Source: Vicugna vicugna (lineage: Eukaryota). Taken from it: 64,000 nucleotides of DNA. Within the stretch, counting starts at the first letter, position 1, and each line of letters opens with the position of its first letter. The position numbers and the translations under genes were made by a program. The stretch spans positions 4,243,668 to 4,307,667 of the forward strand of contig MU057887.1 in NCBI GenBank assembly GCA_013265495.1, read 5' to 3'. A model generated the notes under the pieces. It was not told where the DNA came from. It worked only from the letters and a program-made list of their open reading frames with translations, and searched no databases. Positions 34,893 to 46,200 of this stretch are shown piece after piece.

Positions 34893-36249
34893 TGAGTATA
34901 TACACGTAAAGAGATGCTTTCTGACTTCTCCCTGTCTACCCTCCCCAGCTCAATCCAAACCTTCCCCCACAGTCTGCCCTCCCTCCATGCACCCTCCAAC
35001 AAGTTGGAATTAATGTCAGTTGTGGTTTTTGTGGTGATCTGGGGCTGTGTCATAATTAGTGTCTCTGCACTAAACCAATGGGCCTCACAGCTCCTGTGAG
35101 GGGAGCTGCCTGGAAATGAAGGGGCGTAAGTCCAAGTCTCCTGGAGGCCACATTCTCCTGGTAGCAGGAAGAGACAGGCCCACGAGCGGGATCTGTCCTT
35201 AGTGTGTTTCTTTTCTCCTTGAGGTGGAACATTTTGCTCTGGGCCTGTAGTCTGGGGCTGACACTTGGGTCTCCTTCCTGGAGAGACAGGGCCTCTGCTC
35301 AAGGACTGGTCCACTGGGAGGCCATAGACTATGTGGAGCCTGCAGAGGCAGCGGTGGGCTCTTGTGCGCCTTCTGCAAGCTTCCCACGCACAAGCAGGTT
35401 CAAAATCTAGCCCCTCATTTCTTCACGACTCGTGTTGCTCTGTGACGGCATTTTTTCATTTAGCACACAGATGTCTCCGTATTAGCACACACAGACAGCA
35501 GGGACAGTTATGAGCCGTGGGTCCCATTTCCTTCCCAGGAGGGGATGTCTAGTTTCCCAAAGCTGCTTTCCCTGGATGTGTCCATTTCCCCAAGTCTAAG
35601 CCAACTGGTTCTAATCAGACTCTTCGGTCCTTACCAATCTCACAAGTGTTCTAGTTTTCACTGAAAAATTACGCATGCAGCAGTTTACAAGTGAAGCGAG
35701 ACGCTCTGGTCTGCCTTCATGTCGCGTGGATGCTCTAACCCTGAAGGTGGCTCACAGGTCCTGTCACACTGGGGCAGGAGGCACAGGGCGGGAAGGGAAA
35801 AGCTGTAGGTCGGACTAAGGCCAGAGTGCCTCCAGGCATCGGAGGGACAGGCTCACTCTTTCCTTGTGGGATCAGTAGGCAAATGTTAAATATTCAAGAA
35901 AAGAATTCATATGAATCATATTGCTAGGAAAGATAACAGAAAATCATTTAACAGAGGCTAAACCTGCACACGGTAAAACTCTGACAAGAGCATGGTGTCA
36001 GGAATATCAGATACACAGTAATGAGACTTACGGGGTGGAGGTTTAATTGTGCAAAATCTTATCATATTTGCAAGGAAAAACTGATTCCAATGAATATCGC
36101 TGTAAATTTTAAATGGAAGTGGAAAAAGATACAGGTAGTTAATTTTCACTGTGTAGAAAACTCATCAAGAAATAGAAGTTAGCTTGTTGGGGTTTTCTGC
36201 AGAAACTGCATTCCTGGCAAAGAATCATCAGTAACCTGCTCTGGTCACT

Positions 36250-36987
36250 ACAGATGAGCCTTTGTAGGGACATGTTCTTATGGGGTAAGTATTCAGAAGT
36301 GGAAGAGGGGGTATAGCTCAGTGGTAGAGCATTGGACTGCAGAAGCAGAATGGCTGGCTTGTATAGGAGGGCACATCCCCAAACCCTCAGTGCAATCAAC
36401 ATGGTGAACATACCCACCACTCCCAAAAGCTCCTTGTGGCACTTTGTAGTCCCCGCCCCTCCGCCCAAGGCAACCTCTGATCTGCTTTCTCTCACCATGA
36501 AGTTTGCATTTTTAAAAATTTTAAATTAAAGGAATCACACATCAAGTACTTTTTTTTAAGTCTAGCTTCCTTCACTGAGCATAATCATTTTGAGATTCAT
36601 CTATATGGAAGTGTGTTCAGCAGTTAGTTTATTTTTATTGCTGAGTATTTCATCATACGGCTATACCACTATTTTTCTATTCACTGTTGATGTTTGGTTA
36701 TGTTACAAATAAAGCAGCTATGAGCATTCATATACAAGGCTTTGTATGGACATATGCATTCATATCTCTTAGCCGAATAACTATTGTGGAATGGCTGGGT
36801 CATATGATAGGTGTACGTTTAGTATTTTTAAAAGCTGCCAAAGTGTTTTTCAAAATGGTTGAAACTTTTCACACTCCCACCCACAGTGTATGAGAGTTCC
36901 AGGCCTCTAGTCCCTCACCAGCACCTGGCATGGTCAGTCTACTTTTAGTCATTCTGGTAGGTGTGTGGTAATATTTCACTTGTGGAG
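36250..36987 (-). mobile_element. L1 3'-region fragments (antisense); the element resumes at about 43220
   Basis: acaaataaagcagctatgagcattcatatacaag...cactcccacccacagtgtatgagagttcc...gtgtgtggtaatatttcacttgtgg. Confidence 0.8.
36307..36343 (+). pseudogene. Tailless retropseudogene of the tRNA-Cys(GCA) 5' half
   Basis: gggggtatagctcagtggtagagcattggactgcaga matches recalled tRNA-Cys nt 1-37 with one mismatch; stops just after the GCA anticodon; no B box or A-tail. Confidence 0.8.
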
Positions 36988-37372
36988 TTTTTTCCATAAA
37001 CAAATGTAGTTATGACTAAGTTTACAGCATTCTGAAAGAACACATTTCAGATTTCTTATCGGCGGTGTAACAGGGCAGTAACTTGATAGTAACAAAATGC
37101 GGAAGGACACCTAGGGGAAAAGAGGTAGGCAGAAAGAAAGAAGCATGAAATAAATGTATCTGAGCAGACTTTGGATTTTTCAAGCATCACAGACATCAGT
37201 GGAAAGCAGAAAGAAATACCAACAGCAGTTCATAGAACAACTTCTCCACTGAACTGCAGCTCATGCCTCTGCTGCACTAATTCCAGAAGCAACCTGCTTA
37301 AGAAAAAGGAGGGCTATTTCCTATATAAAATACTCCACAATTTTCAGTCTCTTGGAACCTGTTTGCTGATGT

Positions 37373-37818
37373 TGTGAAGGAAAAGCCAGGCTGGGCCTAC
37401 TGGTAAATCCAAGTGTAACAAGTGTCAGTCAGATCACTGATCTGAGTTCTGCTGGGCTAACTCGTAAACCTAAGTTAATAAGTGCTGGTTTGCTGATTCT
37501 CTGCTCATTTTTTTTTTTTTTTTTTTTTTTTTTTCATTTGGATGGATTTTCAGAGAGACATATCTGGCCTTGGAATGTCAGTTTGCTACCTCCCTGCCTC
37601 TGCTTTTGTGATAATGATGCTGCTAAAGCTGTTCCGTGCCTATTGGCTGAATACCCCAAGCTTGCAATTAACCCTATAAAACCTCATGCACACATTTTGG
37701 AGGTGCTCAGAGCCTTGGAGCAGAAGCCCCTCTGAGCCCGCCTAATAAATCTGAGTACTCCAACCGCCCCCCCCCCCAGTGGTGCTTGTTTCTTGGCTGG
37801 CCTGTCATTTCCATAACA
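37373..37818 (+). mobile_element. Solo ERV LTR (class I-like)
   Basis: TG...CA ends, 4-bp TSD atgt (37369-37372 and 37819-37822), attgg then TATAAA (37675) and AATAAA (37744); internal poly-T run. Confidence 0.85.
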
Positions 37819-40800
37819 ATGTCACTACATTCAAATAACAGTACTTTAAAACAAAATTCTCAGATGTTTTATAATGCTATACATTCTTCAAGGTGAACAA
37901 AATTGTGTTCAGGTCTCAATTAATTTGCAGGTTAAATTAGAAATAACATCCAAGCAGGTCTTTGATCATCACACTCATGCGTCTATTACACAAAATAGAC
38001 AAAAGCTATTTTGTGAACTAAATTCTTCTAGATACGGAGCAAAACTCAAATGTTACACTCAGTACTCTTTATGATATCTTTCTTAACATGAGTCTTTAAA
38101 GTGTTGCATGGAACCTTAAAAAGCCATTTAGTGTTTCCCTTAATATTTAAATTCTTTATTTTCTTAAGAATAAAGATTTCAAATAGAAGACTTCATGACA
38201 ATTCCTGCCTAAGAAGTTCTTAATCTCAAACGTTTCACACTGCCTTTTAAAACAATGACTAAACAGATCCTTATTCCCTCTTGTTCTGTCCTCACAGGAG
38301 ATGGAGAACAACTAATCACATTACTTCTTACTTTGAATCCTTTAATCAAAGTCCCAATAACTTAAAACTTAATAAACCACGTCAACAGCTTTTTCCTCCT
38401 CAGAGTAAAAGGATGTCAATTTTTTAAACTTTTTCTCAGAGGTCTTATTTTACAATCTGTATTTTATTCCTTCTTATTTCTGCTGCTGCAGCTCCTGCGT
38501 GCCCACGGGGCCCTAAGACAGCACACTAGCAGGAGCTGAGTTAGTAAAAGGGATGCTTTTTCCCACCTCCTAGTTCTCACAGAACTAGGCTTCTGTTAAA
38601 TTATTGCTAATAAAGAAAAACAGCTGACTCACTTCCTGCTCATCATAATAACAAATAAACACAAGTCAGCAACTTGGCCACAGTCAGTTTACTCCCTACT
38701 TTTGGAGGGCAGGTAGGTTTGTCCTTCGCAGGAAGCGTTTCCTGTGAGGCCTCACTGACCTTCTGTTGCTTGTCTGCACTTTTAGTTTCCAGTGTGTGCT
38801 TTGGCCTTGCCCCACTTGTTTTTCCCTTTTCCCCAAACTCTAGAAAATTTGAGTTTTGATCTGCATGCTCAAGAAGCATTCATTCATTTCCATGATATCA
38901 TTCCTCGTGGAAAAGATAAACAACATGGAGTCCAAGGCTGAAACTTACTGGCTAGTAGCACTGGAGTCTCTTCTGGCTGGCTCGGGTGATCGCCGCGCTT
39001 TCTTGTCAGCCAGGTGTGGGGCTCCGCCAAGCTCTTGCTAAGCATCACTCAGGCTCAGAGCTTGGCTGGAACCAAGTGATTCCTCAGTCTACATACTTCG
39101 GGAATGTTTGTGAGATTCTGTTTTTGATTTTTTGATTTTTAAATTTTTGAGATAAGAATCCAAGCTTCAATAACTTTTTACCTTCATTAAGATGTTAAAT
39201 AGTAAATATTGCATTATATTAAAGCACTCAGATAAAACTGTTTTCTTCATGTAGAATGACACTGAGGACATGGATTAGTGACCATGAATGGGCTGTCACA
39301 CCATTCAGCTCCCCTTTGTTCTTCAGGCACCAGAACACAGATACTCAAGCCAAATACACATACTTTTCATATGTAGAGTATTGATCATACCTTTTGGAAA
39401 AATAAAGGCTATTTCCTAAATGACGATCTACATCCTTAAAAACAAGTAAAACAAACAAACAAAAAAAACCCCTACATATTTCTCCAGTGCAAAGCCTTTG
39501 AAAACAAATGCATTCCAAACAGTGGTGCTCTGCATTTAGCTGGCTGTCCACTGTCTAAGTCACACAAGACCCAGCTGTCGGAAAGTAAGGGAGGAACAAA
39601 TTGGCGATAGTGGAGACACAATGACTAGAAAGTTATATTTAGATTATACGCATTCAGCCAAATGTTACCTGCAACAAACAGAACCATGATTTATGAGCAT
39701 TCTAATCAGTTCAAACTTTGTGTTATTATCATTATTATTGTAGAAAATAAGCTCTCTAGTGCCGCTGCCCTCCCCCACAGGCAGTCTGCTTGGGGTGGTC
39801 ACATTCAAGGCCTTGAGATCGCTGCCTCTTCACTACACCACGTGCGTTTCAGTGCTTTGTGAAACACAGGGCAGAATACACTTTGAAAAGATTAAACAGC
39901 ACTTCTCTACTAAGTTATTATTCGGAAGACCACAGAGTCTAGCAAAAATGACCTTCCAAGTTTTTTTCCACATTAAAACTAATATACGGTTCTCATACGA
40001 TCAGAAATTCTGTAGAGGTCAGCAAGATGTTAGAATAAACTGGAATTTTAGTGTTTCATAACACCCCAAATCTGTTTGTTTTATATCTTAATAACAGCAT
40101 AATAAATCTACTTACAAAAATATAATTCAGAAGTTGGACTTCTAAATAAATTCAGAGCGCCTTTTTCAGTTCAGATTTTTTTCCCCGTAAACCAGCAAAC
40201 CCATTTGATGTAGAGGGAAGTACCTACACAGCAGGAAAATCTTCTCCAGTCTAAACATCAGCTGATTAAATCCCACCCAGTGCAGGAGCACCAGACACTG
40301 AGAAGGTATCCAGAAATTCGACAAGAACAAAGCCACTGGGAGTGTTGCCTACTGTTTAATGTTCAGTACATGCTAGGATTTTTCATGCATACCATAAATG
40401 TATGCTGCACTAAGAGCATCTTTAAGAGAGGTGCTGAAACTACACATTGAAATGCTAAATGCCCTATTTCAAATTTTCTAATTTGGAAGTAAATACTGGT
40501 GACATAACAACATGCTTCCACTGTGATCTGGGAACAGTGTCGTGTTCTTGCCAATTTAACGGGTTAATTCCCTTAACTAACTCTACAATTAAATACATGA
40601 CACATGCCTTTAAAAAATGTGCTATACACAACTACAAGACTCTGGAACTAAGCTTAATCATATTTTAATTAGAAAACTCACTTTTGTATTGCTATGTTTT
40701 TGTTAAAGGAAGAATAACATGTTGCTATGATACTTTGAGTGTAATGACTTTTGTTTGAGATTACGAAAATTTTGAATAATTTCCCCCAGACCATTTCATT

Positions 40801-41028
40801 TCAAATTTATACAGTTTGCTTAGTCAGCTAACCAAAATACAAGACAACGAAGGGACTAAAGACACTTGGCAGATGAGGTGGAGACAGCGCCACCGCAAGT
40901 CCACTGGTCGCTTTCTTGGTGGCTCTGTTCCCTGTGCCCGTGAGAGCAAGGAGGTCAGGTGAACGAACGCCTTCATAGGCACCGGGTCAGTCCACTCCTA
41001 CTTGACTTAAGAAAATTTTTAATCAGAG

Positions 41029-41431
41029 TGATGACGTAAAATTCATATTTCATGGCAAGACAGGAAAAAATTAAACATACAATTTTTCTCTGCCTGTTTG
41101 GGCCTCGTCCTTCTCCTTTCGCGTGCACCGTGCATCTGTGTTAACCAGACCTCCTTAGGAGAGAACCTTCCTTCTTAGCCTTGTAAGGAGTCTTGACGGC
41201 CCACTACTGGCTTTTTATATACACAGAACTGGGCTGTGTAAGCTGTCAATATATTATTTGATATATCACCCTTTGTCTCAAAAGAGTATATATAACTGTT
41301 CTTTGAACTCTAACAGGTGCAACAGTCCTCAGAGCTTTCTGAAGGTCTATCTCCCAGGCTATAATCCTCAGGTTGGCTTGAACAGAGTTTCCCATTTCTT
41401 TCTTGGGCCAACTATGATGACTTTTTCATCA
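41029..41431 (+). mobile_element. Solo ERV LTR interrupting the PGM2L1 pseudogene C-terminus
   Basis: Terminal inverted repeat tgatga...tcatca, TATA-like gtatatataa near 41286, PGM2L1 homology on both sides; TSD not resolved. Confidence 0.7.
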
Positions 41432-43064
41432 GCAAGTGCTTTGGTGAGTGCCTTTCGATTCTTCCTGTAAGGCAGTGTCGCTCTGGTCAGGTGATGTGCA
41501 CATCTCTGTACAGAGCTCTATCTTTGGTTCTGTCCCACTTGTCTGAGGAGCAGCAACACAGCCAGTTTTAAAAAGTAAATATAATCTTTGGGTTATCTTT
41601 AGCTCACAGGCCGCACTGATGCCTCATTCGATTGTCTGCTGTCCTCTTCAGAGATAATGTCCCGTGTATGCAATGTAACAGTGATCTCACAAAAATTTGG
41701 GTATTCTTTAGGAGAATCAAAGTTGTGAAGCCTTTCAAATATATTTTTGTTGGTAGTTGGATCATAACACAAGAAATATGAAGCTTTTGAAAGATGATAA
41801 TCCAGCCTCAATCAGTTGCTGGCCCAGTGCTCTGTCCATGGTTTCTAGTTAAGACATCATCTCAGCAACAACAGTGGCTGTGCTCACCCCATCTTTATTC
41901 AAAGGCGAAGTTCCACACAGAAAACCAAGGGACTCTTTAAGTGCAAAAATGACTTCTTCTACATTTTCCAGGTCTTTTATTCTACTCCAATCCATTTAAA
42001 ATCTGGTAATGTTTCTTCAAACTAAAATCCTTCTTTACATGCAGTTGGACTCAACATTTTGGAAGAGACTGTGAGGGCTAACATATAAACATTACTCACA
42101 TCAGCATTTCTTGATTTATTTTTTCTTCCAACAATTAAATATCCACCCTACCAAACAAAGCTGCCAGTTCATTCCCAGTGGAAACTTTGCGTTGACCATC
42201 CTCCTGCAGTCCTGCCATTGCCATTGGTCTGCACCAGGATCTGTGACTTGCACAACCTGAAGATTTTCTTTCTCGGCCAGTCTCAGAGAAAGTTCCAGCA
42301 CTTTTCAGAAGAAGAAAGGTCCTTCTTCATATTTGGGCATGTATTGGCAGAAAAGTCTGGATCAAGATCTTTCTGTTCTGGTAATGGAATTGGAGGCTTA
42401 AAACCCAAACACCTGAAAAGCCAATCTCACACAGTCATGACCCCGTGAAAAGAAATATACACAAATTTCAAGGTGGTCTTGGGGTTTGATTCCCCGTGAA
42501 AACAGGTCTTTCCCAGTTCTTCCACGTTTCTCCTCCAGTAGGTCAGCATCCACCAAATTATCATTCCAGGAACCATGCCAGGGTTCCACACAGTCTTCTA
42601 TACGTTTCAGACTTTCTTTGTCATGAGGAGATGTGGCCTAAACACCAGTTTCCCAAACCGTGTCTGGTGTCTTCCTTGCAGTTGTGAGAGGCAGTAATTA
42701 TCACCCCTGCAACTATTTTGAGTTCCTGGACTGCATATGATAGAAAAGGTGTAGGAACTTATCTTGAAAAAATGTGCACAAGAACATCTTTAGCCAACAA
42801 GTCTCTGGCTGCTGCGGCTGCTAGTTACTTGACCTGAGCCATCGCACTCAAGATAAAGTTTCTCTGTGTGAAGTCTGAGAAACATCTCTCTAGGTATCTG
42901 TGGATCCTCTGTGTTGATTGTGTAATAAGCAAGGTAATAAAGCAAAACCCCTCCACCAGGGCAGAACCAAGTCCTGCAGTTCTAAAAGTCATTCAGCAAC
43001 AAAGAAACTCTTCCATTGTCCCATTCAGTAACAGATTTTCACATTGCTCTTTCATTTTGGGATT

Positions 43065-43218
43065 GCTTACCGGCTTATTAGAAAGGATACAACTAAAGAA
43101 CAGCCAAAGGGAATTGATGAACAGGGCAAGGTGTGCCGGGGAGTGGGTCATGGAGCTTCCCTGCCCTCTCTGGGCCCACCACTCTCCAGGACACGTTTAC
43201 GAGTTCCCCAGCTGGAAA
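43065..43218 (-). mobile_element. MER21-like LTR segment
   Basis: Minus strand: gcccagagagggcagggaagctccatg...accttgccctg...ggctgttctttagttgtatcctttctaataagccggtaagc, similar to recalled MER21 consensus. Confidence 0.75.
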
Positions 43219-43219
43219 T

Positions 43220-46200
43220 GGAGTGGTTTTAGTTTACATTTCCCTAGTGGCTATGATGTTAATCACCCTGCCATGTGCTGATTATCATCCATACATCTTC
43301 TTTGGTGGTCTGTTCAAATCTTTTGCCTCTTAAATTTTTGTTTGTTTGTTTCTTTTATAGAGTTTTGAGAGTTCTTTTTGTTTGTTAAACATAAGTCCTT
43401 CATCAGGTATATGCTCTGTAAACATTTTCTACCAGTCAGAGACTTGTCTTTTAATTCTGTAGTGTCTTTTGAAGTACAGAAGCTTTCAATTTTGAAGTAA
43501 AGTTAATCAGTGTGTTCTATTATACATCATGCTTTTAGTGTCATAGCTAAGAAATGACACCAATTAAGAAATCCTTAACCCAAGGCCGCAAGTGTTTTCT
43601 TGTATGTTTTCCTGGAGAAGTTGTAGAGTTTTAAGTTTTACATTTAGGTCTATGATCAATCTTGAGCTCATTTTTGTATATGGTATGAGCTATGGATTGA
43701 AGTTCATTTTTTGTATATGGATAGTCGATTGTTTTAGCACCGTATGTTGAAAAGACTCTTCCTTCTCCACTAAATTGTCTTTGTGCTGCTGAAGCAAATC
43801 AGTTGTTCATATACGTATGGCTCTACCTTTGAGCTCTGTGTTGTTCTTTTGATCTATTTGTCTATATTGGCATAGATACCACATTGTCTTACTATATGTA
43901 GCTTTACAATAAGTCTTGAAACTAGGTAATGTACATCTTCCAACTTCATTTTTCTTTTTCAAAGCTGTTTTGGCTTTTCTAGGTTCTTAGCATTTCCGTA
44001 TGAATTTTAGAATCAGCTTGTTAATTTCTTTTAAAAAAATTCCTGCTAGAGTTTTTATTGTGACTATGTTGAATCTGTAGATTACTCTGAGGAGATATGA
44101 CATCCTAACAATACTGATTCCTCTGAACTATAAACACAGTATACCTCTCCAATAAAACTTAGAACTTGTTTAATTTCCAACAACGTTTTATAGTTTTGAG
44201 TGTGTAGGTCTTTTGCATGTTTTGATACTATTGTAAATGGTACTTTTACTTAAAATTAAAAAAAAAATTTCAATTGTTCATTGTTAGCATATAGAAATAT
44301 AATTTTCTCTGTGTTAATTATGTATCCTGAAACCTTGTGGAACTCACTTATTAATTCTAGCAGTCTTGTTGTAGCTTCTATTGGGTTTCTACACAGAAAA
44401 GCAAGTCATCTGTGAATAAAAAGTTTTATCTATTTTTCCAGTCCAAATGCGTTTATTTCTTTGTCTTACTTCACTGGCCAGAACCTTCAGCACAGTGAAT
44501 GCAGGTAGTGAGAGAGGACTTTCTTGTCCTGGCCCTGATCTTAGGGGCATATAATTAAACAATTAAGCCTTTCACCATTAAGCATGATGTGAACAGTGAA
44601 GTTAACTGTTAAGTATAATGTTTTTCACAGATATTCTTTATTAGGCTGAAGATGTTCCCTTTCATATCTACTTTGTTAAGAGGTTTTTACTTATTTATTT
44701 TTAATATAAAGAGAAAATGTCGTATTTTGGCAGAAGCTTTTTCTGTGTCTATTGAGATGGTCCTATAGTTTTTCTGTCTTCGTTAATCTGGTGAATTATA
44801 CTCCTTTCTCTTAAAAAAGAAAAACAACCCTTTTATTTCAGAGTAATTTTAGATTTACAGAAAAGTTGCAGAGTAGTATAAGGGACCCACATGCCCCTCA
44901 CCCAGTTTCAGTTTCCTGCATTGTTAACATTGTGCATTACTATGGTACGTATATCAAAATCAAGGTGTCAACGTTGGCACGTTGCTATTAGCCAAACTTC
45001 AGACTTTATTTGGATTTCACCAGTTTCCCATTACTTTTCTTTTTCTGTTGCAAAATCTAATCCAGAACCTCATTGCTTCTATTTGTCAGATTTTTGTCTC
45101 TTCTGTTTGGTGACAGTTACTTAATGCTTTTTTGCTTTTTTCTGACCTTGACAGTTTTGAGGAATGTGGGTCAGATATTTTGTAGAATGTCCTTCGATTT
45201 GAATTGTCTGTTAATTTTCCTCATGATTTTGTTGGGATTATGAGTTTTTGGAAAGAATCACACAGAGATGAAGTGTCCTCATCACATCCTATTAGGGGGT
45301 CCACGACATTACAGGACAACAGTGATATGAACCTTGATCGCTTGGTATTATGTTCCTGGTTTCTTCACTATTTCCTTTTCATACTCTATTCTTCGGAAGT
45401 GAAATGCTCAGTCTAGCCCACCCTCTGTGGTTGTGGTGGTGAAGTGTCAGCTCCCACAGGGTGCAGTACCTAACTATATTATCAGGAATTCTTCTGTAGG
45501 GGAGATTCATCTCTTCTCCCCTCTTTACTTATTCTAGTAGTGTAGCCCCACATTTATTTAGTTCATAATTTGGATTACAATCCAATATCACATTATTTAA
45601 TTTGTTGCTCATATTATTCTCTCTTTAGTCATCCGGAGCCCTTTAATGTTCGCACCCTTTCGTGCGGCCCCATCAGTTAATGTTTTGAATACATCTTACT
45701 TTCTAATACTACAAGGTGCTCCAGGCTCATTTGTATTTTCCTTGCCTCGGTCCTGGAATTGGCCATTTCTTCAAGGTGACCTAATTCCTTTTATTGGAGA
45801 ATAGGGTATTTAGAAACCAAAATCTGGACCCTGGGCTTGCTCATTGCTACTGGGATGTCACTGTCTTTAGGCCCTCTAAGTGAGGTAAGATGAAGCCAGG
45901 TATATATCTTAACCTATGTATACATGCATATCTATTATTGTTTCTGTACCTATCCATTTGCATTTCTTTCTTTCTTCCTTCCTTCCCTTCCCTTCCCTTT
46001 TTTCACAAATGGAGGTGCTGGAAATTGAACCAAGAACTTCGTGCATGCTCAGCATGCAGTCTAACAACTGAACTATCCCCCACTCCCTCCAACTTTAATT
46101 TGGTATCAGAGTTCATTTGATTCTTCCCCTTTTTGTTTATATTGAATAAGAATAATTTTTGAATGTTTAACTGACATTGCTTTCATGGAATAAATTCCAC

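Follow-up and report, generated by a model that had tools for sequence, protein, structure and literature searches.

A dead PGM2L1 retrocopy in the vicuña genome that appears to record an LTR-started transcript

The locus

The 64,000-nucleotide (nt) stretch of Vicugna vicugna DNA analysed here (contig MU057887.1 of assembly GCA_013265495.1, positions 4,243,668 to 4,307,667; hereafter the window) holds the 3' end of SHANK3, the gene ACR and, near 56.5-57 kb, the end of a gene that we take to be RABL2. Between ACR and this presumed RABL2 end lies, on the minus strand, a dead processed copy of PGM2L1 exons 2-14 plus 3' untranslated region (UTR), which runs from position 43064 to ~36993 and is preceded, in the place of exon 1, by a piece of long terminal repeat (LTR). 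The RNA from which this arrangement was made is the subject of what follows. Rfam gives zero matches across window positions 36000-45000, and four RNA sequencing runs gave no alignment on the copy, a result that carries no weight as evidence.

The parental gene, on the minus strand of contig C3191 of the same genome (G000:C3191), has 14 exons and 622 codons and shares 587 identical residues with bat PGM2L1. Its exon 1 (C3191:212232-212122) supplies 37 codons and lies 12.5 kb upstream of exon 2, whose first base after the AG acceptor is G000:C3191:199573. Exons 2-14 and the 3' UTR are matched in order in the window, and all 12 internal exon junctions are joined, 11 of them without a gap and one within an 11-nt deletion. 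The exon copy stands at a Kimura two-parameter (K2P) distance of 0.21 from the parent, carries 20 indels and has stops in all frames. Differences amount to 0.18, 0.16 and 0.20 at codon positions 1, 2 and 3; this equality, together with the indels, establishes that coding constraint was lost. The 3' UTR copy differs from the parent by 19-26%. No counterpart of parental exon 1 was found in window positions 36500-44500.

The whole is embedded in an L1, also on the minus strand, with the upstream side of the split at 43223..43700 (continuing past 43700; 67-74% identity to other L1-type copies) and the downstream side at 36500..36985. On an unrelated L1 copy the flanking segments 43307-43223 and 36985-36694 form one continuous stretch, with a 4-nt overlap; against 19 further L1 copies the overlap is in register in four, one pair is out of register and 14 give no pair. 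A likely target-site duplication is recognizable from the sequence and from comparison with the empty site. Its left copy, AAAACCAC, occupies 43223..43230, may extend over 43222-43219, and lies at a T/AAAA site, the preference of the L1 endonuclease; a short A run and the right copy, AAAAAACTCCAC, occupy 36982..36993. Although degraded (8-12 nt), the duplication encloses the LTR piece and the mRNA copy together, and the LTR piece has no duplication of its own. A preliminary description of this DNA had proposed, from the single split L1 that the two share, that they arrived together, and the contiguity of the flanks and the one enclosing duplication support their assignment to one L1-made insertion.

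The leader and its junction with exon 2

The leader is 154 nt long (43065..43218, minus strand) and is a dispersed repeat: 39 of its 40 scored genome matches lie elsewhere, at 72-83% identity. The LTR sequence of about 150 nt noted in the preliminary description directly upstream of the PGM2L1 sequence is thus confirmed as part of a multi-copy LTR; its family we take to be MER21, an ERVL LTR. Copies of the repeat are mostly 500-860 nt long and the element is ~780 nt; the piece is an interior segment, lacking ~340 nt on the upstream side and ~280 nt on the downstream side. Many copies start at a TGTG-like end ~490 nt before the end of the piece; flanking duplications are few and unconvincing. 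The lengths given for MER21B and MER21C in PMC5538554, 868 and 938 nt, are near that of the element.

The boundaries of the piece lie at characteristic distances from TATA-like and donor-like motifs of the repeat. Among the 29 best-hit genome copies, in which motif positions were counted, 10 carry a TATA-like motif 28-34 nt ahead of the 5' end of the piece (background 0.0019 per base), with decayed TATA-like forms in further copies, and 15 carry a GT[AG]AG donor motif 1-4 nt past its aligned end (background 0.0027 per base). For another LTR family, transcription starts 25-32 nt behind a TATA motif have been mapped, as recounted in a section of PMC1781489 (where a reported MER21C start at NAIP could not be confirmed). 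With TATA spacing at one end and a donor beside the other, the piece looks like a whole first exon, running from a TATA-placed start to a splice donor, the agreement at the 5' end being one of motif position. The whole element has two TATA-like and two donor-like clusters, and the chance that a 5' end falls 28-34 nt behind one of the former is, by a rough post-hoc estimate, ~1.8%.

AATAAA stands just ahead of the donor in 17 of the 29 copies and is likely to be the LTR poly(A) signal; its decayed counterpart in the piece is AATAAG at 43074..43079 (minus strand), 9 nt ahead of the junction. Closer still, at 6 nt, the piece has a donor-like GTAAGC, which is found at the same place in one copy out of 29 and is probably a later change.

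At the junction itself (43064..43065, minus strand) PGM2L1 homology begins abruptly at 43064, exactly the first base after the parental exon 2 acceptor, and exon 1 is absent, as the preliminary description had anticipated. On a rough post-hoc reckoning, a break would fall exactly at one of 13 exon starts in ~5.2 kb by chance in 0.25% of cases, and within 2 nt of one of the two donor-like clusters in ~1.3%. The further claim that a strong donor lies exactly at the end of the LTR segment holds in part: the donor motif is there, 1-4 nt on, in the 15 copies already mentioned, but its offset depends on the subfamily, being 2 nt past the aligned end in some copies and 4 nt in others. If the source copy had its donor 2 nt on, splicing would call for one transition.

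Age of the copy

Residues of the copy at sites that vary among mammals place it within Laurasiatheria. At residue 498 the copy has T, as do camelids, pig, ruminants, dog and one of two bats, with P in baboon, gorilla, mole-rat and the marsupial; its T190 is the older state, with N in camelids, pig, cattle and yak. Nine sites were selected by eye as camelid-specific: the copy agrees with camelids at one of them (468), shows the non-camelid residue at five and has neither at three. Retroposition would accordingly have followed the Laurasiatheria split and preceded the separation of camel, pig and ruminant lineages, an interval of roughly 80-60 million years. This age leaves ample time for the loss of a neutral LTR, so the source LTR has probably been lost from the parental locus.

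Origin of the RNA

The explanation that we prefer, and to which we assign a probability of about two in three, is that L1 made the copy from a single RNA that was started by an LTR promoter and spliced from an LTR donor to exon 2, the source LTR, near the parent, having since been lost or eroded. An LTR close to parental PGM2L1 and on the same strand would have started the transcript at its own promoter; its donor would have been spliced in cis to the exon 2 acceptor; the L1 machinery would have retroposed the spliced, LTR-led RNA into another L1; and ordinary deletion would later have removed or eroded the LTR at the parent. The ends of the piece would then be a transcription start and a donor, and the RNA would have been present in the germline or early embryo, because the copy was inherited. 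Splicing in cis explains all three coincidences at the piece's ends and needs ordinary deletion only.

Against this stand, first, the details of the junction. A tree of 33 LTR copies, with one of 30 inner branches well supported, groups the piece (95/89) with copies whose donor is 4 nt on, not 2, and splicing from such a donor would require the loss of 2 nt at the junction; a column test between the 2-nt and 4-nt donor groups favours neither clearly (log2 ratio 1.3). The AAG that closes exon 1 recurs in the AAGC at the end of the piece, a possible microhomology. The dating depends on single sites: galago has N190, and the copy has the camelid residue at 468 and the vicuña's own (and alpaca) residue at 580. 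Nor is there an LTR-like N-terminus in any of the 204 proteins compared.

A further objection is that no intact source was found at the parent. The parental region was read over C3191:130001-524422, an N-free span reaching 325 kb above exon 2, and the 29 LTR copies were used as queries over C3191:177000-524422 of this one genome, with an empty reversed control. The search returned three same-strand pieces, one opposite-strand copy and two weak matches. None of the 29 copies finds an LTR copy in intron 1 of PGM2L1, and over the 325 kb upstream of exon 2 there is no same-strand copy that bears both the matching segment and the donor. The expectation that the best match to the leader would be a same-orientation copy at the parent, followed by GTAAG, has therefore failed, there being none intact in the 325 kb and intron 1 being empty, and the living LTR promoter that had been predicted for PGM2L1 is not present intact in this genome.

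The nearest same-strand piece is a fragment at C3191:219813-219692, 7 kb above exon 1 and 20 kb above exon 2, which covers element positions -141 to -26 only and lies wholly inside the span of the leader. It has neither promoter nor donor; it is 70% identical to the leader over 119 aligned bases, whereas a true source should have diverged about as much as the UTR copy, by 19-26%; it scores below all 29 copies (themselves chosen as best matches), shares one of 20 rare states (the maximum seen being four) and is not grouped with the piece. We disfavour it as a remnant of the source. The other two same-strand pieces are farther off, past KCNE3 and LIPT2, at 286.7 kb and 398 kb; the former ends ~20 nt into the leader segment and the latter differs internally.

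The fragment above exon 1 sits between L1-like DNA and another high-copy repeat, in a region above exon 1 that shows deletion-like joins between repeats. On the minus strand, G000:C3191:219480-219813 is a composite of the LTR fragment, a fragment of the other high-copy repeat, AATAAA and an A-rich tract, all behind the L1-like DNA, which could be a small retroposed RNA or a deletion scar. The two weak matches are at 473.6 kb and 491.3 kb of the contig; the latter (G000:C3191:491265-491311, minus strand) is reached by 6 of the 29 copies at E 0.009 and corresponds to the LTR part just behind the donor. A weak signal in intron 1 at 207.0 kb was dropped, since the reversed control equals it and the sequence is A/T-rich. 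Choosing a source by identity alone was also given up, the best match in the genome (83%, on another contig) being a selected maximum. An exact search with the 14-letter end motif gave seven places, fewer than the reversed control, one of them followed directly by GTAA, and is uninformative.

The alternative that fares best among the rest, though we think it unlikely, is trans-splicing: an LTR exon, start to donor, from another locus would have been joined to the exon 2 acceptor in the germline and the product copied by L1, which would make the retrocopy a fossil of mammalian trans-splicing. If this were true, young LTRs of the type that we presume to be MER21 would be portable spliced leaders for host mRNAs. 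It accounts in full for the junction and also for the absence of a source. There is also a precedent in the 17 mRNA/L1 chimeric insertions described in sections of PMC11838501, 15 of them without L1 in the gene and six ending precisely at donors, for which trans-splicing was proposed. These resemble the PGM2L1 copy in having a complete first exon that ends at a donor, one duplication and no source in cis; they differ in that a 5' gene exon precedes 3' L1 sequence, whereas here a 5' LTR precedes 3' host mRNA. What lowers the standing of trans-splicing is that its occurrence in mammals is debated (as part of PMC13690279 relates), that losing a neutral LTR is nothing unusual on a scale of tens of millions of years, and that the region above parental exon 1 has deletion-like joins between repeats.

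Slightly less likely still, in our estimate, is a template switch or RNA ligation during L1 reverse transcription, in which synthesis would have proceeded as far as the boundary of exons 1 and 2, switched to a short LTR RNA and continued to its cap. Such chimeras are already known; the AAG found both at the end of exon 1 and close to the end of the piece would favour the switch; the piece ends 9 nt after the position of the LTR poly(A) signal, so that it is near a start-to-poly(A) RNA; and a 5' end at the transcription start is expected here too, with no source required at the parent. The cost is in the coincidences: a break no more than 3 nt from an exon start (0.25-1.5% by chance), a break beside a conserved donor (~1.3%) and a one-base insertion besides, to be set against the single transition that splicing would require if the donor lay 2 nt on.

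A scenario that we hold to be improbable makes the LTR a cassette exon within intron 1, spliced in after the normal exon 1, with the copy 5'-truncated inside this cassette. L1 copies are often 5'-truncated, and MER21 internal exons appear in the bovine data in the tables of PMC5538554; but the acceptor-like TTTCCAG lies within the piece, at its start, so the piece does not begin after that AG, its 5' end is at the TATA-predicted start, and intron 1 holds no LTR copy. An independent insertion of the LTR, before or after the retrocopy, with later trimming, can be set aside as highly improbable: the retrocopy did receive two later insertions, but the piece has neither LTR end and no duplication of its own, two deletions would have had to stop at the start site and at the donor/exon boundary, and the L1 duplication encloses it.

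Predicted product

Splicing to exon 2 drops 37 residues, and the next Met is residue 53. Since Pfam domain I starts only at residue 65 (the TASHN motif is at 173), the predicted N-terminal truncation would be mild and would leave every Pfam domain in place; a structure search at E 1e-20 gave no close solved relative of PGM2L1, and the effect is judged from Pfam. The encoded enzyme would have begun at Met53 or else at an ATG within the leader (43149..43151, minus strand), which is in frame and begins an open stretch of 29 codons into exon 2, in which case 29 largely hydrophobic LTR-coded residues could have replaced the first 37. An in-frame open ATG is present in 4 of the 15 donor-bearing copies of the family; that of the leader may or may not be ancestral. 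The N-truncated isoform of the preliminary description finds a parallel in the 570-residue PGM2L1 isoforms, starting at Met53, predicted in five euarchontoglires (tree shrew, macaque, hare, squirrel and chinchilla), whose 5' exons may be alternative first exons of other kinds. N-terminal truncation is the usual outcome of chimeric transcripts in the bovine embryo, according to passages of bioRxiv 10.64898/2026.05.25.727629.

Relation to known systems

LTR first exons, MER21 included, and retrocopies as archives of isoforms are both already published. Processed pseudogenes are treated as records of transcript isoforms in a passage of PMC4772013 that cites Shemesh et al. 2006; the PGM2L1 copy is like them in keeping an exon structure missing from the present annotation of the parent, and differs in that its extra exon is an LTR first exon, that it is very old and that its source is not intact. 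In oocytes and embryos ERVL LTRs can supply promoter, start, donor and sometimes an AUG, as in the MTC-driven truncated Dicer1 isoform (in the text of PMC5538554), and the tables of the same paper give a full MER21B 5' exon on Cnot2 in mouse and hamster and, for bovine embryos, at least nine MER21B/C 5' exons among 30 of 50 MER21 rows. The likeness extends to the promoter, the start, the donor by the poly(A) signal, the optional AUG and splicing to a host exon; the difference is that those loci are living and expressed, whereas the PGM2L1 copy is a fossil. Service of an LTR of this family, as we take it to be, as an alternative promoter is a further likeness. MER21A, listed as a primate element, provides placental promoters of CYP19A1, HSD17B1 and ST6GAL1 (in the relevant part of PMC4419796); there the LTRs survive at the genes, and placental RNA would not give an inherited retrocopy.

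LTR-mediated retroposition, as depicted in portions of PMC5470649 and PMC5408686, also fuses LTR sequence to an mRNA copy, but the LTR then lies on both sides and the copy is often partial, whereas here it is at the 5' end only, and the copy has the exon series in full, ends in an A run and sits at an L1-type site. This mechanism was rejected for the PGM2L1 copy: its 3' UTR runs straight into the A run and the L1.

A pairing of PGM2L1 with MER21 was not found in the literature searched, the bovine table of PMC5538554 giving unnamed gene identifiers. PGM2L1 is not named in the portions of the supplements of PMC6102241 and PMC10113160 that were covered, and those covered from PMC5538554 name it once, for a mouse MTD element. 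What is new here is that the 5' end of the leader lies at a TATA-predicted start and its 3' end by a donor motif. The copy preserves with unusual completeness an LTR-driven isoform that is probably extinct: start site, donor and full exon series can be read. It also marks the points at which the LTR family likely begins transcription and splices in a non-model lineage. Retrocopies can be mined in this way for LTR promoters that have gone from the parent gene. The copy reveals neither a living promoter nor a new enzyme or mechanism, unless the source should prove to be intact in a relative or to lie on another chromosome.

The 3' part of the copy

The spliced exons 2-13 and the start of exon 14 occupy 41443..43064 (minus strand), as located by genome comparison and the exon map. 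Within the exon 14 copy there follows a later insertion of ~410 nt (41029..41442, minus strand), which the parent lacks and which resembles a later solo LTR. The remaining exon 14 and 3' UTR copy extends over 36993..41028 (minus strand). It ends inside the parental UTR (window 36993-37000, corresponding to G000:C3191:177269), with six A left at the 3' end that overlap the duplication. In the parent a G/T-rich tract comes just behind the end point and AATAAA is absent from the preceding 150 nt; the position suggests an old alternative poly(A) site. The 3' UTR copy is itself broken at ~37845-37378 by a later element of ~465 nt, which has TG...CA ends and an ACAT duplication, contains a run of ~27 A, and looks like a younger LTR-like element.

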